A stretch of DNA of 64,000 nucleotides from positions 2,707,982-2,771,981 of the forward strand of contig CP064979.1 of assembly GCA_016699575.1 (NCBI GenBank). The letters are read 5' to 3'. The notes beneath the pieces were generated by a model, which was not told where the DNA came from, made no database searches, and saw only the letters and a program-made list of their open reading frames with translations. Of the stretch, positions 2,819-40,210 are shown piece after piece (position 1 is the stretch's first letter; the number at the start of each line of letters is the position of its first letter). The DNA comes from Flavobacteriales bacterium (GTDB lineage: Bacteria > Bacteroidota > Bacteroidia > Flavobacteriales_F > PHOS-HE28). The translations under genes were made by a program, and so were the position numbers.

Positions 2819-3571
2819 ATGTTCGCGGGCATGGCGGGCGTGCTGCAGTTCCTCGACAGGTCGAAGGCCGAAGGGCGGAAGCTGCTGGCCGTGCTCATCG
2901 ATCCGGACCAGGCAACGGACGCGCGCCAATTGGAACGCACCGTTCAGAACGCGTGCATGGCCAAGGCCGATCTGCTCTTCGTGGGTGGGAGCCTCATGGC
3001 CACAGATGGGTTCGATGCCTGCGTGCGGCGGGTGAAGGATCTGAGCGACCGGCCAGTGGTGCTTTTCCCAGGAAGTCCGGCGCAGCTGAGCGCACATGCC
3101 GACGCAGTGCTTTTCCTCAGCCTGATCAGCGGGCGTAATCCCGAGCTGCTTATCGGGCATCATGTTACAGCAGCGCCTCGGGTGAAAGCGCTTGGCATCG
3201 AAGCTATACCCACCGGCTACATGCTCGTGGACGGTGGCCGCATGACCACAGCGCATTACGTGAGCCAGACCTCGCCCATACCGCACGACAAGCCCAGCAT
3301 CGCGGGCGCCACAGCCTTGGCCGGTTCGCTGCTCGGTTTGCGCGCCATGTACATGGACACAGGGAGCGGGGCCAAGCGCACCGTGAGCGAAGCCATGATC
3401 TCAGCCGTGCGCTCATCCGTTGATGTGCCGATCATTGTTGGTGGCGGTATCCGCGATGGCGCCACAGCACGCGCACTTTGCTTAGCGGGTGCGGATGTGG
3501 TCGTTGTCGGCACAGCGGTGGAAGAAGATCCCGAAGCCGTTTTCGCGCTGAGCGAGGCGGTGCACAGTTGA
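2819..3571 (+). CDS. geranylgeranylglyceryl/heptaprenylglyceryl phosphate synthase (PcrB/GGGPS family, TIM barrel)
   Basis: 250 aa with a PcrB-like signature: [46 protein letters not shown]....[10 protein letters not shown]. Confidence 0.8.
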
Positions 3572-3581
3572 CCCTGACATC

Positions 3582-5543
3582 ATGGTGCGGCGCCTCCTTG
3601 CCGGATGTCTTGTGCTGAGCGGGATCACCAGCGGCTTTTCCCAGCCGGATTCGCTCTGGAAAGCCTGGAGCGACACTTCGCTGCCGGACAGCTTGCGCCT
3701 GCAAGCGATTCAAACGCTCGCATGGAAAGCCGTCTTCGAGCAGCCCGACAGCGGGATGAAGCTCGCGGACCTTCAACTGGCCTTCGCGCTAAAGGCAAAG
3801 GACGGTCGGGCGCGCTACGAAGCGTACACGACGCTGGCGGTGGGAAGTAGCATGAAGAGCGATAACCAGGCTTCGCTCGAATACCTGGAACAGTGCGTGG
3901 CCGTGGCGAAGGAGATCGGTGACCGCAAGCGGGAGGCGAACGCTTACCGCAACATGAGCAACGTGCACAAGAACACAGGCGACCTCCCACAGGCGTTGGC
4001 CATGTGCCAGAAGGCGCTCGTCATCAACGAGGAGCTCGGTAACAAAACGGGTTTGGCCGATACGTACAATACCATCGGCAACCTCTACACGGAGCAGGAG
4101 GAGAGCACCAAGGCGCTGGAGAACTACGAACGCAGCCGGGCGCTCTACGAGGAGATGCAAGACACGAAGGGCCGTGCACAAGCATTGCAGAACATCGGCG
4201 CAACGCACCTTGCCATGGGCGAGCGGCCCAAGGCCATTGAAGAGTTCCTGCAAAGCCTCGACCTGTACCGGACCATGGGCCGACGGCTGGAGAGCGGCAT
4301 GGCCTTCAACAACCTCGGGCGTGCTTACACCGGGATGGAGCGCTATGCTGAGGCGCATGCGAGCCTCGATTCGGCACGGAGCATCTTCGGCACCATGGGC
4401 AACAAGCGCCTGCTGGCCCGCACCCACTACTACACCGGTGAGCTTTTGCGCGCGCAACAACTGCACCACGAAGCCGTGACGGCCTGCGAGGCCGGCCTTG
4501 CGCTGGCAAAGTCCTCCGACCTTCTGCAGCAGCAGAAGGAATGCAGTGAATGCTTGATGCTGGCCTACGAAGCGAGGGGCGACCTGGCCAACGCTTTCCG
4601 GGCGCAGAAGGTGTACATGACGGTAAGCGACTCGCTCGACCGCATGAACAACAACAAGGAGGTAATGCGTCTCGAACTACAGCACGCATTCCGCCAGCAG
4701 CAGACCGCGGACAGTTTGGAGCAGGCCCGTGCGCGTTACGAGCGCGACCTGGCATTCCAGCAAGAGCTTGCGGTCGAACGGGAACAACGCAACTGGATCC
4801 TTTTCTCCGGTATGGGCGTCCTGGTACTTGCCGGTGCGCTGTACGGTCGTCTTCGTTACATCCGCCGTTCGCGTGCTGCCATCCAACGCGAGAAGGACCG
4901 TAGCGACGATCTTCTGCACAACATCCTGCCGAAGGAAGTAGCCGCCGAGCTGAAGGACAAGGGCGCCGCGCAGGCGCGTGCATTCGACGAAGCCACGGTG
5001 CTGTTCACCGACTTCAAAGGATTCACGCAGCTATCGGAACAGCTTTCCGCAGCGGAGCTGGTGGCCGAGATCGATCACTGCTTCAAGGGCCTCGATGCCA
5101 TCGTGGACCGCTATCGCATCGAAAAGATCAAGACGATCGGTGATGCCTACATGGCGGTGGCGGGTGTGCCTGATCCCACGCATGCGTCCGCGAAGGAAGC
5201 GGTGCTTGCAGCATTGGACATGCAGGCGTTCATCCAAGGGCGCTTTGCCGAGCGGAGCGCTAAAGGACTTCCGGCGTTCGAGATGCGTGTTGGCATCCAT
5301 ACGGGCCACGTGGTTGCCGGTATCGTGGGGTCGAAGAAGTGGCAGTACGACATCTGGGGCGATACCGTGAACACAGCGGCCCGGCTTGAAAGCAGCGGTG
5401 CGCCGGGCGAGGTGAACATCAGTGCGGCCACGTTCGAGCGGGTGAAGGACCTCCCGGGACTTCATTTCGAAGCGCGCGGTCGCGTGGGCGCCAAGAACAA
5501 AGGCGAACTGGAGATGTTCTTCGTGCGACGCGTTCCGGCCTAG
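3582..5543 (+). CDS. TPR-repeat membrane-anchored class III adenylate/guanylate cyclase
   Basis: 653 aa: signal/TM, multiple TPR-like repeats (LGNKTGLADTYNTIGNLY..., ALQNIGATHLAMGE...), one TM helix (WILFSGMGVLVLAGALYG), then a CYCc catalytic domain (FTDFKGFTQLSE....KTIGDAYMAVAGVP....GIHTGHVVAGIVGSKKWQYDIWGDTVNTAARLES). Confidence 0.9.
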   Translation: MVRRLLAGCLVLSGITSGFSQPDSLWKAWSDTSLPDSLRLQAIQTLAWKAVFEQPDSGMKLADLQLAFALKAKDGRARYEAYTTLAVGSSMKSDNQASLEYLEQCVAVAKEIGDRKREANAYRNMSNVHKNTGDLPQALAMCQKALVINEELGNKTGLADTYNTIGNLYTEQEESTKALENYERSRALYEEMQDTKGRAQALQNIGATHLAMGERPKAIEEFLQSLDLYRTMGRRLESGMAFNNLGRAYTGMERYAEAHASLDSARSIFGTMGNKRLLARTHYYTGELLRAQQLHHEAVTACEAGLALAKSSDLLQQQKECSECLMLAYEARGDLANAFRAQKVYMTVSDSLDRMNNNKEVMRLELQHAFRQQQTADSLEQARARYERDLAFQQELAVEREQRNWILFSGMGVLVLAGALYGRLRYIRRSRAAIQREKDRSDDLLHNILPKEVAAELKDKGAAQARAFDEATVLFTDFKGFTQLSEQLSAAELVAEIDHCFKGLDAIVDRYRIEKIKTIGDAYMAVAGVPDPTHASAKEAVLAALDMQAFIQGRFAERSAKGLPAFEMRVGIHTGHVVAGIVGSKKWQYDIWGDTVNTAARLESSGAPGEVNISAATFERVKDLPGLHFEARGRVGAKNKGELEMFFVRRVPA

Positions 5544-5552
5544 GGGTGCAGC

Positions 5553-6887
5553 TCAGCGCACCACCATGCGCGCGTTCCTCGTGCCGAGCGGGGTGTGCAA
5601 TTGCACCGCATAGACCCCATCGGAAATTGGTTGGCCGAAACGAACGTCCAGCGTTTGCTCACCCTCGCTGAGGTTCAGAATGCCGTCGTACACCAGTCGG
5701 CCCGACAGATCGAACACCAACAGGCGCGCTGTTCCTTGCTCATCGATCACGGCATCCACCGTGATGTTCACTCCCGCGCCATCGTTGGGGACCGGGAAGA
5801 GCGTCAAAGAAGCGTCGGCTTGTGCGTCTTCCGCTTCAACCGAGCGCACCATGGCTTGCACGCCGTTGCGCGTGCGCACACTGCATACAGGACCGTACGG
5901 GCACCACGTTGCACCATTGTCAAAGCTCGCCCTCACTTGCACGTCGTAGTAGCGGCCCGGCTTCAGCGGGTTGGTGGCCCATTTGGTGATCGGCAACGCG
6001 TTCGTGGGTTTGGCTATGGCACGCGCGTAGGTGCCGCGCGTGAAGAGCCATTGGTAACGGTTTGCACCGGGTACTTGGGTTGCGTGGAGCGTGCTGCCTC
6101 CGCTCAGCCAAATGTCCGCACCACAGCTGGTTTCGGGGGCGTCACTTGCGGTCAGTTGGGTCAGGGCACAGGCATCGATGCCGGTCTTCAGGCCTTCACG
6201 CGCTTGGCTCGTCAGATCTGCGCCATCGATCTCCACCAGCGTTGCGCCCAAGCTGCTCACGCGGGCATAGCCGGGGCTGCGCGAACCGGCGCTCATGCCA
6301 TCGCCGCCGCTGTCCATCAGTTCGAAGGTGTAGCAATCCGAAGGCGACAGAACGAGCGTCGCCTGTTGCATCCCGTTCGGTTCCGTGTAAGGTCCGCCTT
6401 GCACCACCACGGCGCCGAGCTCATTGCGGATCATCCACGTGGTTTCGTCCGGGTTGTCGTCGGTCTTCACTTCCACGTTCACGCCATAGCTGCTGCCCGG
6501 TGCCGGTTCGGCTACCAGGGTCTTGCTCAGGATGTTCCCGTTGGCGTCCTCGTCCGCATTGCCGTTCACGCTGATGATGCGCAGCTCAATGACATCGCCC
6601 GGTGCTGCTGGAACTGGTGGGAACGACGGCGTACGCGACTCGCCCGTGGCCGCCGGAACACCAAGGATCCAGTTGAACGAGTTGTCCATCACGCCGTTCT
6701 TCCATGTTTCCACCACGCAAGTGCTCATGGTGGTAGTGCCCACGTTCTTGATCCGCGCTGCAGGACCCGCGCTTCCGGCGCAAGCGTGTTCAAGGCCGGT
6801 GTAGGCTTCGATGCGTGCGTCGTAGTTGGTCTGGGCAAAGGCTGCCGTGGTCAGCAGCGCAAGCGTGTAGGTGGGCAGGATCCGCAT
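5553..6887 (-). CDS. secreted hypothetical protein with T9SS type-A C-terminal sorting domain (Por_Secre_tail)
   Basis: Signal peptide MRILPTYTLALLTTAAFAQ. C-terminal ~75 aa (LTLFPVPNDGAGVNITVDA.....VYAVQLHTPLGTRNARMVVR) has the Por secretion-tail pattern. Confidence 0.75.
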   Translation of the reverse strand: MRILPTYTLALLTTAAFAQTNYDARIEAYTGLEHACAGSAGPAARIKNVGTTTMSTCVVETWKNGVMDNSFNWILGVPAATGESRTPSFPPVPAAPGDVIELRIISVNGNADEDANGNILSKTLVAEPAPGSSYGVNVEVKTDDNPDETTWMIRNELGAVVVQGGPYTEPNGMQQATLVLSPSDCYTFELMDSGGDGMSAGSRSPGYARVSSLGATLVEIDGADLTSQAREGLKTGIDACALTQLTASDAPETSCGADIWLSGGSTLHATQVPGANRYQWLFTRGTYARAIAKPTNALPITKWATNPLKPGRYYDVQVRASFDNGATWCPYGPVCSVRTRNGVQAMVRSVEAEDAQADASLTLFPVPNDGAGVNITVDAVIDEQGTARLLVFDLSGRLVYDGILNLSEGEQTLDVRFGQPISDGVYAVQLHTPLGTRNARMVVR

Positions 6888-6959: not shown

Positions 6960-9338
6960 TCAGAACCGCACCGTCACCCCGCCCAGCACGTTCAGCGGTG
7001 CCTGCGGGAAGAGCCCCACCATCTCTTGCCGACGACTTTCGGAGTAGTAGGAATACACCCAGCCGTTGCTCTCGTATTCCTCGCTGAAGAGGTTGCGCAC
7101 GGTGAGGTTGATGTCGATGCCGTCCACCGGCCCGACGCCCGCAACGGTGATGTTGAGGCGGGCGTCGTTCACCAAGTAGGCATCCAGCGAACGTTCGACG
7201 CTGCCCGTGTTGTCGAGGAACTGCTGCCCCACGTATTTCGCGGCCCACGTCAGGTCCACGCGCCCGCCGCGTTGCGAGCGCCAGAGCGTGGCCGTGAGTT
7301 CGCCGCCCGCAATGGCGTTCGGTGAGAACGCGAGGTCCGTTTCCCCTTGCTCCACGCGCACCTGCCCGCCGTTGTCCCAGTCGTCCACGTATTCCGTGAA
7401 GTCGCGCACGCGGTTGCGGCTGAGGGTGGCGTTGGCGCTGAGCAAGAGACGTGGGTGCAGCCGTGCCGTGCACATCAGTTCGACCCCCGCGCGATAACTG
7501 CTGGTCACGTTGGTGCGCAAAGCGGCACCCACATCGTTCAGTTCACCGGTGAGGACGAGCTGATCCTTGTAGTTCATGTAGTAGCCGTTGATGCCGACCG
7601 TAAGGCGGGTGCTGCGCAATTCGTAACCGGCTTCGATATCCTGCATCTGTTCCGGTCGCGGGCGGCTTTGCGGACTGGTCTCGGTAAGGTCGTCGCGGTT
7701 AGGCTCGCGGTTCGCCACGGCGAATGAGGCGTACAACCGGTCGTTCTTGCGCACGCGAACGTTCACTCCGGCCTTGGGATTGAAGAAGGTGAAGGCCGCC
7801 TGCTGCGTCACGTTGCGCAGCTCGTTGTCGTAACCCAAGAAGTCGTGGTTCACGCTGCGCACCTGTGCATCAGCATGCAGATCGATGCGCGGATGAAGGG
7901 TCCACGTCGCTTTCAGGAAGGCGTTCATGTCGGTCTTCACGGCATCGTTGAAGTAGTAACGGTCGCGGATGCCGCCTTCACCGGCATAGCGCGCCCAGAT
8001 CACCTCGCCGAAGTGATCGCCTTCGTACTTGCTGTAGCTGCCGCCGAGCACCAAGCGCAGGTTGTCCATGCGCTGTTCGTAGCTCGCGTTCAACCCGGTG
8101 ATGACATTGTCGAGCCAACGCCTTCGGATGATGTCGCTCGTTGTGATGGTGTCGCCGCCCGCGATCACCGGGGCGATGCCGTAGTTGGCCAGGTCATCGT
8201 CTTCCCTGAACTGCTCGTAGAAGCCTTTGCCCAAAGTCCGGAACAAGGTGATGTTGAGCGCGCCCTTCGCGCCCACCTCTTGATCGAACAACAACTGGTA
8301 ATAGGTCTGCCGGTAGTCGTCCACCTCGTTGTCGTAAGTGTAGGGATTGAACGTGCGGTTGGTGTCGATCACCTCTCGTGGCACGCCGCCCCATGCCTGG
8401 TAGGTCACTTCCTTTCCGCTGAAGGTGATGAACCGCAAGGACCGTGACTTGCCGAGCCAAGCGCCTTGCAGGAAATAGCTGTTCAGGTCTGCGGAAGCGC
8501 GGTCGATGTAGCCGTCGCTGTGCATCGTGCTCAGGCGTCCATCAAGACTGAGGCCTTTGTGCACGCCAGTGCCGAAACGGGCTGCATACCGTTGCGTGTT
8601 GAACGATCCGCCGCTGACGCTCACCGCGCCGAACGCACTGTCGCTCACCGTTGTGGTCCGCACGTTCACGCTGGCACCAAAAGCACCTGGGCCGTTCGTG
8701 CTGCTGCCCACGCCGCGCTGCACCTCGATGTCCTGGGTGCTGGTCGCCAGATCGGGCATGTCCACCCAGTACATGCCTTGGCTCTCGGCGTCGTTGATGG
8801 GCACACCGTTCACCGTGACGTTGATGCGCGTGGCATCGCTGCCACGGATGCGTAGGCCGGTGTAGCCGAAGCCAGTGCCCGCATCGGTGGTGGTGACCAC
8901 ACTGGGCAAATGATCCAGCAGCAAAGGCATGTCCACGCCCGTGTTGGTCCTTTGAAGTCGTTCCGCATCCACCGTGTTCTTCACGAAGGGTGTGCGATCG
9001 CCAGCGCGCAACGCACGCACCTCGGCTTGCGGGAGCAAATAGGAGAGCGGGCGCAGCGAGAAGTTCACCGTTGCATTTCCTGTTGACCCCACCACGACCG
9101 TCGTGTCCACTGGAACGAAACCGAAGTAGGACGCGCTCATCGCAACCCTGCCCTGCTTCAGCACGCCGCTTGTGAACGCCCCATCGCGGTTGGTGAGCAG
9201 CACAGTGCCGTCGATGCTGACCAACGCACCTTCAAGCGCTTCGCCCTCGCCGCTTTTGATCGTGCCTGTGATCCTCGTTTGTGCCCCTGCGAGAACTGGC
9301 ACGGCCAAGGCCATCGCCAACACAACTGACTTCCGCAT
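6960..9338 (-). CDS. TonB-dependent outer-membrane receptor with N-terminal carboxypeptidase-regulatory domain; riboswitch context suggests a thiamin/TPP-related substrate
   Basis: 792 aa: signal peptide, CarbopepD_reg-like N-terminus (ITGTIKSGEGEALEGALVSIDG), plug-domain motifs (DAERLQRTNTGVDMPLLLDHLPSV, GLRIRGSDATRINVTVNGVPIND), long beta-barrel, C-terminal aromatic residue (TVRF). Preceded by a TPP riboswitch. Confidence 0.9.
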   Translation of the reverse strand: MRKSVVLAMALAVPVLAGAQTRITGTIKSGEGEALEGALVSIDGTVLLTNRDGAFTSGVLKQGRVAMSASYFGFVPVDTTVVVGSTGNATVNFSLRPLSYLLPQAEVRALRAGDRTPFVKNTVDAERLQRTNTGVDMPLLLDHLPSVVTTTDAGTGFGYTGLRIRGSDATRINVTVNGVPINDAESQGMYWVDMPDLATSTQDIEVQRGVGSSTNGPGAFGASVNVRTTTVSDSAFGAVSVSGGSFNTQRYAARFGTGVHKGLSLDGRLSTMHSDGYIDRASADLNSYFLQGAWLGKSRSLRFITFSGKEVTYQAWGGVPREVIDTNRTFNPYTYDNEVDDYRQTYYQLLFDQEVGAKGALNITLFRTLGKGFYEQFREDDDLANYGIAPVIAGGDTITTSDIIRRRWLDNVITGLNASYEQRMDNLRLVLGGSYSKYEGDHFGEVIWARYAGEGGIRDRYYFNDAVKTDMNAFLKATWTLHPRIDLHADAQVRSVNHDFLGYDNELRNVTQQAAFTFFNPKAGVNVRVRKNDRLYASFAVANREPNRDDLTETSPQSRPRPEQMQDIEAGYELRSTRLTVGINGYYMNYKDQLVLTGELNDVGAALRTNVTSSYRAGVELMCTARLHPRLLLSANATLSRNRVRDFTEYVDDWDNGGQVRVEQGETDLAFSPNAIAGGELTATLWRSQRGGRVDLTWAAKYVGQQFLDNTGSVERSLDAYLVNDARLNITVAGVGPVDGIDINLTVRNLFSEEYESNGWVYSYYSESRRQEMVGLFPQAPLNVLGGVTVRF

Positions 9339-9399
9339 GTGTACTTCCGTTTTCCTCCTTCCGCCGCACGCAGGGGCCGCGCGCGCCGGTGATCGTGTT

Positions 9400-9488
9400 C
9401 CGATCCCGTGTCCCTTGGCGGCATTACCCGCCCAGGTTCAATGGGTATGATCTCAGCCCCGACGGATCGGGACACCCCAGTGTGAAAC
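9400..9488 (-). promoter_or_regulatory. TPP (thiamin pyrophosphate, THI-box) riboswitch in the 5' leader of the TonB-dependent receptor
   Basis: Minus-strand sequence ACUGGGGUGUCCC-GAUCCGUCGGGG-CUGAGA-UCAUACCC-AUUGAACCUG-GGCGGGUAAUGCCGCC-AAGGGAC. It carries the conserved THI-element blocks in the right order (GGGGUGCCC-like, CUGAGA, ACCC, GAACCUG, UAAUGCC helix, AGGGA), with compensatory pairing in the GGCGG/CCGCC helix. It lies ~60 nt upstream of the start at 9338. Confidence 0.75.
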
Positions 9489-9560
9489 CGGGGCGAAGGT
9501 AATCGCGATGATGAGGTGCGCCACCGGATCACGAAGACGCGAAGAAGGCCAAGGCCGTGC

Positions 9561-10106
9561 TTAGCCAATTTTCTTGCACTGCCTAACGTCCACGATCATA
9601 CTGTAGATCGACGCGGCATCTTGCACAACATCGAACGCGGGCGGGCCTGCGTTGTTCCGGCCAAAACCTATGCGGGAAAAGGGCATTGCTGGCGCAGGTC
9701 CCAACAGCACCGTCCCCCATCCTCCATGCTGTGTTTCAACCGAGACGTTCGTAACGGAATGAAGATCCACTGAACGATCGATGCGCCTTGGTGCCGTGGC
9801 GGTGATGATCGCGCGCTGATCGGTCAGCGTATACCAAGTATGGCGGCGCTGATAGCTCTCAACAAGAAAGCGCCCGAATACGAAGTACATGCCGATACCG
9901 ACGAAAGCGAGCCCGAAGATCTTCATGATGAACGGGGCGCTTGTGGCGATCACCGAGACGGTCCAGAAGACTGCGAACCCGCACCATAGTAGGCTGAACG
10001 GGATCAAGAAGAGGTCGTGGGTCCGTACGCGAAGCCCTTGCTTCGGTTGACCCTGCCACAGGATACGCTCCTCTGCGTTCAATGCTATGACAGGTGGGAT
10101 TCTCAT
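9561..10106 (-). CDS. membrane protein with bacterial PH (bPH_2/DUF304, YdbS-like) domain
   Basis: 181 aa: ILWQGQP motif, two adjacent TM helices (LFLIPFSLLWCGFAVFWTV... / IFGLAFVGIGMYFVFG), then a soluble tail. Confidence 0.5.
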   Translation of the reverse strand: MRIPPVIALNAEERILWQGQPKQGLRVRTHDLFLIPFSLLWCGFAVFWTVSVIATSAPFIMKIFGLAFVGIGMYFVFGRFLVESYQRRHTWYTLTDQRAIITATAPRRIDRSVDLHSVTNVSVETQHGGWGTVLLGPAPAMPFSRIGFGRNNAGPPAFDVVQDAASIYSMIVDVRQCKKIG

Positions 10107-31440: not shown

Positions 31441-31571
31441 GGAAGACCACAGAGGCACAGGGACACAGAGTTCGCCGAGAAACGGAAGAGACCGACCTGC
31501 ACAATAGCCACGGAGCAGCAAGGCAACGCGAACTCCGTGTGCTCTGTGGCTCCCTGCCTCTGTGGTCTTCA
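31441..31571. repeat. intergenic palindromic repeat, family C copy 1 (GAAGACCACAGAGGCACAGGGACACAGAG ... CTCTGTGGCTCCCTGCCTCTGTGGTCTTC)
   Basis: ~29-bp inverted arms flanking ~70 nt. Between the rfbB start and the dehydrogenase stop. Confidence 0.7.
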
Positions 31572-40119: not shown

Positions 40120-40210
40120 AGTATCACACGGAGGCACAGAGGCACGGAGACCCATCGGACATCCTGACCCAACTGGCGCTCCGTGCCTCTGTGCCTCTGT
40201 GTGGGATCCT
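40120..40210. repeat. intergenic palindromic repeat, family C copy 3 (CACACGGAGGCACAGAGGCACGGAG ... CTCCGTGCCTCTGTGCCTCTGTGTG)
   Basis: Perfect 25-bp reverse-complement arms around a 41-nt spacer; shares the CACAGAGGCAC motif with copies at 31441 and 32880. Confidence 0.7.

Follow-up and report, generated by a model that had tools for sequence, protein, structure and literature searches.

A putative divergent TPP-type riboswitch in the leader of a TonB-dependent receptor gene from a Flavobacteriales bacterium

Locus and gene content

The window analyzed in this study is a 64,000-nucleotide (64-kb) stretch of DNA from a Flavobacteriales bacterium. On its minus strand, the window encodes a 792-aa TonB-dependent receptor (6960..9338), a candidate outer-membrane thiamin transporter, in which Pfam detected an N-terminal CarboxypepD_reg domain, a Plug domain (E = 1.4e-11), and a TonB_dep_Rec_b-barrel domain (E = 5.7e-22); no specific family was matched when the receptor was compared with NCBIfam. 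A protein 100% identical to the receptor occurs in a Flavobacteriales MAG. A TPP-type (THI-box) aptamer match spans 9393..9489 on the same strand, with a core running from 9478 to 9411, and the receptor ATG, at 9338, lies 72 nt downstream of the end of this core. The aptamer was matched both by the Rfam model RF00059 and by a second covariance model, R1, which was built from the variant form of the aptamer described below. Read along the minus strand, the leader has the order AUUACCUUCGCCCCGGUUUCACACU-GGGGUGUCCCGAUCCGUCGGGGCUGAGAUCAUACCCAUUGAACCUGGGCGGGUAAUGCCGCCAAGGGA-CACGGGAUCGGAACACGAUCACCGGCGCGCGCGGCCCCUGCGUGCGGCGGAAGGAGGAAAACGGAAGUACAC-AUG. No other riboswitch was found within the 64-kb window with Rfam in gathering and E-value modes or with R1.

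A second minus-strand gene (5553..6887), located 72 nt downstream of the receptor gene, encodes a 444-aa cargo protein of the type IX secretion system (T9SS) with a T9SS C-terminal sorting domain and is the probable second gene of the receptor operon. This protein has only 45 homologues among 5.8 billion proteins. Its AlphaFold model, which is of high confidence (pLDDT 87.6), consists of four beta-sandwich domains, and fold searches returned generic Ig/FN3/CARDB-like folds and T9SS C-terminal domains only. The N-terminal domain, of approximately 220 aa, is encoded immediately behind the receptor in 16 related loci, 11 of them clustering by a full downstream ORF; this recurrence suggests that the 444-aa protein is a clade-specific partner of the receptor, and assigning it a role in thiamin capture would be speculation. 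A census of 130 loci turned up neither pnuT nor tnr3, nor any other thiamin gene, downstream of the receptor, and 69 of the 130 have no co-directional ORF within 400 nt of the receptor gene.

Conserved blocks and Rfam score

A sequence-only reading of this DNA had listed six THI-element blocks in the receptor leader, and direct reading of the minus strand recovered all six in the same order: GGGGUGUCCC (9478..9469), CUGAGA (9456..9451), ACCC (9446..9443), GAACCUG (9439..9433), GGCGGGUAAUGCCGCC (9432..9417), and AAGGGA (9416..9411). The span that it gave for the element, 9400-9488, was essentially right, with the RF00059 match covering 9489..9393 and R1 producing a single match in the window (9490..9405, 82.7 bits).

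The RF00059 match extends end to end (model positions 1-105) and scores 49.0 bits, corresponding to E = 1.1e-8 on a 501-nt region and to E = 1.5e-6 over both strands of the 64 kb when searched against 4227 families, where it was the best match in the window. The curated gathering score of RF00059 is 54.3 bits, and Rfam in its default (gathering) mode reported nothing across the whole 64 kb. A cmsearch score below the gathering threshold had been named in advance as grounds for discarding the riboswitch, and formally the score does fall short (49.0 vs 54.3 bits). In our judgment this cutoff is too strict for the aptamer, because the whole clade scores 39-50 bits and distant orthologous loci score 55-72 bits. 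The alignment locates the lost bits in three places: the P1 pairs are all non-canonical, P3a is deleted, and one nucleotide is missing from each side of the P4/P5 internal loop. Because the element falls below the gathering score and lacks both P1 and the C77/G78 positions, it is therefore classed as a variant rather than as a plain member of RF00059.

Helices and covariation of the aptamer

Covariation was assessed in 116 distinct sequences against column shuffles (n = 500) and controls in which the partners were slid. Within P2, P3, and P4-P5 together, 90.9% of cells were paired vs 81.7% in the shuffles, and changes on both sides of a pair were counted in 233 cells vs 85, with 0 of 500 shuffles as high in permutation tests that take no account of sequence relatedness. 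Sliding the partners by 1-3 columns reduced pairing to 34-58%. The covariation is carried by P3 and P5; P2 and P4 are invariant, partly due to a search pattern that fixed them.

The 5' strand of P2, GGGG (9475..9478, minus strand), pairs with ACCC (9446..9443) in the covariance model alignment and is invariant in the 116 sequences. It is followed by the P3 hairpin GUCCC-GAUCCGUC-GGGGC (9456..9473, minus strand), which is supported by covariation: four of its five pairs carry changes on both sides across the 116 sequences, and three different P3 sequences occur among the eight closest relatives. The directly read J3-2 segment CUGAGA (9451..9456, minus strand), invariant in all relatives, corresponds to the pyrimidine-sensor T-loop of TPP riboswitches (PMC3764141). 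The pyrimidine-sensor core composed of GGGG, the CUGAGA T-loop, and ACCC is thus present in the window and invariant in the relatives.

The earlier claim that P3 carries compensatory changes relative to E. coli thiM holds loosely. When compared with the thiM aptamer sequence, which was confirmed in E. coli genomes, the window differs on both strands of P3 (GCC-CUUC/GAAGGC in thiM vs GUCCC/GGGGC in the window) and likewise of P5 (CUGG/CCAG vs GCGG/CCGC). The expectation that the conserved blocks fold into P1 through P5 was borne out in part: P2, P3, P4, and P5 fold and are supported by covariation, whereas P1 pairs at the level of chance and P3a is absent from the window aptamer.

Conservation of the element across Bacteroidota

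A search for relatives of the receptor, with one genome per species, found 590 loci, of which the best 80 were kept. Among these best 80 of 590, 77 Bacteroidota genome loci have an R1 aptamer 5' of the receptor gene and on its coding strand; for the three loci that gave no R1 match, the upstream sequence amounts to 0-289 nt. Eight close relatives score 38.9-50.4 bits against RF00059. The 14 closest genome loci (57-61% receptor identity) gave no RF00059 match at the gathering score, and the same element is present at 39-50 bits in those 14 and in seven nearer relatives chosen by protein identity. Distant orthologous receptor loci (40-48% identity), from Cytophagales, Bacteroidales, Balneolales, and others, carry canonical RF00059 matches of 55-72 bits in the same position, 60-190 nt upstream of the receptor gene; Bacteroidales receptor homologues at 40-45% identity are among those with canonical riboswitches. 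Eight relatives of the window share an identical aptamer core, while the identity of their receptor proteins is only 71-91%.

A metagenome scan for the short form of the aptamer located at least 120 loci. Among the matches listed that have at least 700 nt of downstream DNA, the receptor family follows the short form in 88 of 94. Five of the six exceptions have ThiC (twice), Thi4, ThiT/YuaJ, or an ABC ATPase downstream, four of these having been identified by Pfam scan and the second ThiC by eye. Since the short form also precedes ThiC, Thi4, and ThiT/YuaJ, these loci provide independent evidence for a thiamin riboswitch.

Combined, the orthologous position (77 of the best 80 of 590 loci), the covariation, the association with thiC, thi4, and thiT, and the precedent of OMthi in Bacteroides support the interpretation of the leader element as a genuine, divergent TPP-type riboswitch preceding a gene for a TonB-dependent receptor, as judged from comparative sequence evidence. 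The proposal that the receptor is a candidate thiamin transporter is supported as part of the same interpretation, with OMthi again as precedent (PMC5613172; bioRxiv 10.1101/867226).

Predicted promoter, short 5' leader, and absence of P1

Upstream of the aptamer is the sequence TACCTTCG (9494..9501, minus strand), which fits the consensus TAnnTTTG, has a fixed spacing in relatives, and which we take to be a Bacteroidota-type -7 promoter box. Of 136 related leaders, 108 contain a TAnnTT[TC]G box whose end lies 10-19 nt 5' of GGGG, and the spacing from the promoter box to GGGG is 13-15 nt in all 22 of 22 close relatives. Transcription is therefore predicted from the promoter motif to start near 9490-9488, about 6-11 nt before P2. 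The resulting short 5' leader, GGUUUCACACU (9479..9489, minus strand), has no P1 partner adjoining the aptamer. In folds and duplex calculations, the leader shows complementarity to J3-2 (UGAGAUC) and, when GGGG is included, to a decoy downstream of the aptamer.

A canonical P1 beside the aptamer was rejected: in the 116 sequences, 34.7% of its cells were paired vs 34.2% in shuffles, and slid registers behaved alike. The receptor leaders lack P1 because the promoter box places the mRNA start just before P2. Copies of the short form that are associated with thiC show an adjoining P1 on visual inspection, which makes the lack of P1 a property of the receptor leaders rather than of the short arm.

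Several substitutes for P1 and other long-range pairings were also considered and rejected. A long-range P1 between CCGGU (9491..9487) and ACCGG (9390..9386) is available in the window, is not conserved in relatives L083-L087, and would lie partly 5' of the predicted transcription start. Base pairing between the P3 loop CCGAUCC and GGAUCGG in the downstream hairpin H1, and between GUGUCCC and GGGACAC, is in each case specific to the window and not conserved in relatives L081-L087; both were treated as coincidence. Finally, pairing of the leader with the purine-rich ribosome-binding region amounts to 3-4 bp only, and a change in the leader from GGUUUC to GGACUC occurs without a matching change in the partner.

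The pyrophosphate arm and ligand specificity

The P4-P5 arm, CCUG-G-GCGG-GUAAUG-CCGC-C-AAGG (9413..9436, minus strand), was delimited by covariance model alignment and covariation. One G.A mismatch is the only departure from a continuous helix, and the arm is 98.6% paired in the 116 sequences. Each side of the J4-5/J5-4 internal loop of canonical aptamers (A61 U62 / C77 G78 in E. coli numbering) is shortened here by one nucleotide, and what is left is Watson-Crick paired, with the model G78 aligned to a gap. The extra pair that replaces A61/C77 (columns 68-83) varies in sequence, being GC in 64 cases, CG in 33, AU in 9, and UA in 3. The aptamer retains equivalents of U59, G60, and A80 but not of C77 and G78.

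In canonical aptamers, G60, C77, and G78 contribute the metal and pyrophosphate contacts, and G78 is the sole direct contact between the RNA and the pyrophosphate (PMC3764141). Since C77 and G78 are not conserved, the ligand could be thiamin vitamers generally and not strictly TPP. A real aptamer of relaxed or shifted specificity, which would respond equally to thiamin, TMP, and TPP or else chiefly to thiamin, is accordingly the alternative that survives best; under it, the imported vitamin itself and not the finished cofactor would throttle the receptor. The deletion of the model G78 and the variable Watson-Crick pairing in place of the former internal loop argue for such a shift, and precedent exists in an unpublished set mentioned by McCown et al. 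2017, in which many TPP variants are mutated in the pyrophosphate-binding core and bind thiamin about as well as TMP and TPP (PMC5473149). However, orthologues of the same receptor are found under canonical aptamers with an intact CG in other lineages, the short form precedes thiC and thi4 as ordinary TPP riboswitches do, and U59, G60, and A80 are retained. We therefore regard relaxed specificity as possible but somewhat unlikely, and prefer a sensor of the TPP type.

Downstream leader and proposed regulatory mechanism

Directly after the aptamer is the hairpin H1 (GGGAUCG-GAACA-CGAUCACC; 9388..9407, minus strand), which has a predicted energy of approximately -8.2 kcal/mol in 8/8 clade members and a near-invariant sequence that displays no covariation. 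A second hairpin, H2 (CCG-G-CGCGCGCGG / CUGCGUGCG-G-CGG; 9361..9389, minus strand), holds a CCCC decoy (9376..9373) in its loop and is predicted at -14 to -22.7 kcal/mol in 8/8 clade members with differing stem sequences, the window having the value of -22.7 kcal/mol. H2 is followed by the purine-rich ribosome-binding region AAGGAGGAAAACGGAAGUACAC (9339..9360, minus strand), which was read directly and whose purine-rich tract is conserved in the clade. The start-codon segment CAUGCGG (9333..9339, minus strand) can pair with CUGCGUG (9373..9367), a candidate weak sequestor; this duplex (-11.2 to -14.1 kcal/mol) was the best partner of the start region found in the window and in relatives L081 and L082.

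The duplex of the leader and GGGG with the decoy is calculated at -13.5 kcal/mol in the window. In per-sequence shuffles, only 34% of the leader-decoy duplexes reach p <= 0.05, because GC-rich shuffles pair easily, and positional conservation is the more useful indicator. The downstream partner of the leader and GGGG ends a median of 21 nt before the AUG (interquartile range 19-28) in 101 related leaders, and 23 nt before it in the window. An H-type pseudoknot in which GGGG would pair with the loop of an intact H2 was rejected, having been judged sterically implausible from the loop lengths.

The clearest view of a switching mechanism comes from a sister clade (16 leaders; 57-61% receptor identity), in which the leader together with GGGG, for example GUCUUGCAACGGGG, can pair with the downstream sequence CCUCCGUGCAAGGAC. 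The outer part of this long-range helix covaries (GUCGC/GCGAC, GUCAUC/GAUGAC, CUUGCA/UGCAAG, and UACAC/GUGUA). In the alternative fold, the decoy and its flank, CCUCCGUG, pair with CACGGAGG, located 3-7 nt before the AUG. The two folds are nearly isoenergetic and both helices covary: cognate combinations gave -8.61 vs -7.04 kcal/mol for non-cognate ones in the long-range helix (1 of 5000 permutations as low, with relatedness ignored) and -15.84 vs -14.00 kcal/mol in the sequestor (0 of 5000 permutations as low, again with relatedness ignored). On these comparative grounds, the sister-clade arrangement amounts to what would be a translational OFF switch, with the signal carried by the 5' strand of P2 and not by the 3' strand of P1. 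In the low-GC relatives, AAGAAUAAUnACCCCUUUUAUUCGAAU is conserved and precedes a hairpin containing the AUG.

Given the absence of P1, it would likewise be the GGGG strand of P2 that conveys ligand binding in the window. With ligand bound, GGGG would be locked to ACCC; with ligand absent, GGGG and the short leader would pair with the downstream decoy (CCCC, 9376..9373, and its flank). In the window clade, the decoy lies in the loop of H2, and its flank could also pair weakly with the start codon. The ligand-dependent choice between GGGG-ACCC and GGGG-decoy pairing is well grounded in this clade; the output step is not. According to the modeled energies, H2 (-22.7 kcal/mol) is stronger and should out-compete both the decoy-leader helix and the start-codon sequestor. 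Start-site accessibility was also modeled with the aptamer forced or blocked; in the window clade, where along with the low-GC relatives this modeling is uninformative (it is informative for part of the sister clade), the aptamer-on and aptamer-off values for the window itself were 0.58 vs 0.74, almost no difference, and the difference was smaller in relatives. Translational control is nonetheless the favored output for the window clade, because of the homology to the sister clade, the short distance between the aptamer and the AUG, and the translational OMthi riboswitch of B. thetaiotaomicron.

A second alternative is that the riboswitch in this clade acts on transcription or on the fate of the RNA, with H2 serving as an attenuator, a pause, or a processing signal that forms only if its 3' strand and the decoy escape the leader and GGGG. 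The strength of H2 and its conservation with changed stems in all eight clade members are consistent with such a role, as is the mutual exclusivity of H2 and the leader-decoy pairing, which follows terminator/antiterminator logic. Accessibility modeling produced no convincing start-site sequestor, and the OMthi riboswitch, which acts on translation in B. thetaiotaomicron, regulates at the mRNA level in B. uniformis (bioRxiv 10.1101/867226). However, H2 was rejected as an intrinsic terminator because it is not followed by a U-tract (the next bases are AAGGAGGAAAAC), and a 20-kb terminator scan displayed no enrichment of hairpins followed by U and none at the H2 position. The clear start-site hairpin in the sister clade and the distance of 72 nt from the aptamer to the AUG, which belongs to the short-distance class that is translational in B. 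thetaiotaomicron, also argue against it. Control through H2 is therefore improbable in our estimation.

It is very improbable that the element is a decaying relic, in which H2 would act as a permanent anti-sequestor and the receptor would be constitutive: the Rfam score below threshold, the absent P1, and the high modeled accessibility in both states would fit decay, but the core is unchanged in the eight relatives despite receptor divergence, the changes in P3 are compensated, the same architecture recurs in more than 100 independent sequences, and in a relic the decoy would not stay at a fixed distance from the AUG.

Overall interpretation and significance

Taken together, the locus very probably contains a functional TPP-type riboswitch for thiamin vitamers, transcribed from its own Bacteroidota-type promoter and located in the leader of a TonB-dependent receptor gene with which the T9SS partner is probably co-operonic, and the riboswitch likely lowers receptor expression when TPP or its vitamers are plentiful. 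It is a known kind of system, following the OMthi paradigm of Bacteroides, in a variant form that is missed by standard Rfam annotation. More tentatively, and with considerable doubt, the element could represent a widespread THI-box subclass (at least 120 metagenome loci and approximately a quarter of receptor leaders). Such a subclass would be P1-less at the 5' end of the mRNA, would have a pocket without C77/G78 and possibly act as a general vitamer sensor, would switch through competition of ACCC with an ACCCC/CCUCC decoy for GGGG, and would include one clade with a T9SS partner. If this were true, the T9SS partner could be a new accessory of vitamin B1 capture.

From the riboswitch, thiamin or one of its vitamers can be predicted as the substrate of an otherwise generic family of TonB-dependent receptors. 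This family spans Flavobacteriales, Cytophagales, Bacteroidales, Balneolales, and their relatives, many of them environmental, for which B1 exchange is ecologically important. The results also highlight an annotation blind spot: a clade that scores 39-50 bits vanishes at the gathering score, so that surveys of B1 auxotrophy and uptake will under-count it. Additionally, a P1-less form with a rebuilt pyrophosphate arm constitutes a natural test of how much of the canonical pocket is needed, and it can be used to test whether uptake genes track another vitamer than biosynthesis genes do.

Comparison with known systems

In comparison with canonical TPP riboswitches (RF00059, e.g., E. coli thiM), the window element shares the P2 formed by GGGG and ACCC, a variable P3, the CUGAGA T-loop, the GAACCUG...AAGGGA arm with its (G/A)UAAUG loop, a position in the leader of a thiamin-related gene, and an output that is likely OFF when ligand is bound. 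The sister clade further resembles thiM in that a pyrimidine-rich CCUCC covers a GGAGG near the AUG. The window element differs in lacking P1 and P3a, in having Watson-Crick pairs in place of the C77/G78 loop, and in placing the aptamer approximately 10 nt from the transcription start; whereas canonical TPP switching uses the 3' strand of P1, switching in the window element seems to rely on a downstream decoy and the 5' strand of P2. The variants mentioned by McCown et al. 2017 are similar, in sets compared by description only, in that the pyrophosphate-sensor arm is changed, the pyrimidine-sensor arm is intact, and thiamin genes are still associated (PMC5473149).

The cobalamin riboswitch of btuB offers a parallel in which a vitamin-sensing leader RNA throttles the TonB-dependent importer of that same vitamin. 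TonB-dependent receptors of the btuB type in Bacteroidota often have surface-exposed accessory proteins. The btuB system differs from the window in RNA family and ligand, and the T9SS partner is only a candidate accessory.

Among the closest known systems is also OMthi, and the sequence-only reading was correct in stating that TonB-dependent thiamin transporters gated by TPP riboswitches are known in Bacteroides (PMC5613172; bioRxiv 10.1101/867226). In B. thetaiotaomicron, a TPP riboswitch precedes the OMthi gene (BT2390), whose product contributes to thiamin uptake and becomes necessary for growth at low thiamin in cells that cannot make the vitamin. The thiamin requirement rises about 10-fold in mutants deprived of biosynthesis and OMthi together, and 91 of 114 gut Bacteroidetes genomes encode OMthi as well as PnuT (PMC5613172). 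The window locus resembles OMthi in combining a Bacteroidota gene for a TonB-dependent outer-membrane transporter with a TPP-type riboswitch close to the start codon. It differs in its host, a high-GC environmental Flavobacteriales MAG, in the short variant form of its aptamer, and in its neighborhood, since no pnuT or tnr3 lies nearby in the loci examined and the downstream partner in the window is a T9SS cargo gene instead.

Gene context of the receptor

Immediately downstream of the receptor gene, starting after 72 nt, lies a gene encoding a 444-aa cargo protein of the type IX secretion system (5553-6887, minus strand), which has beta-sandwich domains throughout and an N-terminal domain with many invariant residues, including D23, C36, C57, W73 and R85. 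Only 45 homologues are known from a search of 5.8 billion proteins. Within the high-GC Flavobacteriales clade, the N-terminal domain is a repeated downstream neighbour of this receptor, and the cargo protein could be a surface accessory of the transporter. The genes for a PcrB-family geranylgeranylglyceryl/heptaprenylglyceryl phosphate synthase (2819-3571, plus strand) and, next after it, a TPR-domain adenylate/guanylate cyclase (3582-5543, plus strand) keep their synteny with the receptor locus among close relatives.

On the upstream side, the gap between murA and the receptor gene measures about 790 nt in the window, owing to a 181-aa ORF (9561-10106, minus strand) located between murA and the riboswitch promoter; in L081, L083, L084 and L087, which are the closest relatives, the same interval spans only 190-300 nt. 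This ORF has a weak PuhB-like NCBIfam match (39 bits vs. a cutoff of 110); it may be an insertion, or it may not be a real gene.

A further intergenic element, at 40126-40202, is an inverted repeat on both strands with 25-bp arms, CACACGGAGGCACAGAGGCACGGAG and CUCCGUGCCUCUGUGCCUCUGUGUG. The arm motif recurs elsewhere in the window (three matches against 0.01 expected), with one copy at 31448-31468 (minus strand), and is also found in a related genome upstream of the L082 receptor gene; this recurrence in both sequences suggests that the lineage has a family of REP-like repeats. A mir-3622 match at the same interval, scored on both strands, is spurious.

Leader elements of the window and its relatives

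The 5' leader (window 9479-9489, minus strand; equivalent leaders in L088-L207) is complementary to UGAGAU of the invariant aptamer strand J3-2, with a family consensus of UCUCAAA and GGUUUCA in the window. The minimum-free-energy folds of several leaders use this pairing, with the P2 helix blocked, and the predicted pairing may represent an anti-aptamer helix of the ligand-free state; alternatively, the leader may simply be a conserved initiation region.

Upstream of the receptor gene in four loci, two adjacent matches to the covariance model of the short aptamer form were detected (L027, 1224-1414; L029, 1108-1223; L033, 535-730; L076, 3706-3943). These pairs could be tandem aptamers, or they could be split alignments arising from long P3 insertions.

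In sixteen leaders (L001, L002, L005-L014, L022, L045, L130 and L178), a GGAGG resembling a Shine-Dalgarno sequence is conserved at the canonical distance, approximately 3-7 nt before the receptor ATG, together with an anti-SD-like CCUCC that pairs with it. Bacteroidota are commonly regarded as relying little on SD pairing, and the GGAGG/CCUCC pair in a lineage of this phylum is of interest for SD-dependent translation in Flavobacteriia.

Among low-GC relatives (L088, L089, L105, L116, L122, L125, L126, L137, L138, L145 and L148), the motif AAGAAUAAUnACCCCUUUUAUUCGAAU, lying some 20-45 nt upstream of the receptor's ATG, is strikingly conserved and overlaps a hairpin containing the start codon. 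The motif can itself form a small hairpin, which resembles the window hairpin H2 (9361-9389, minus strand) in showing ACCCC in its loop.
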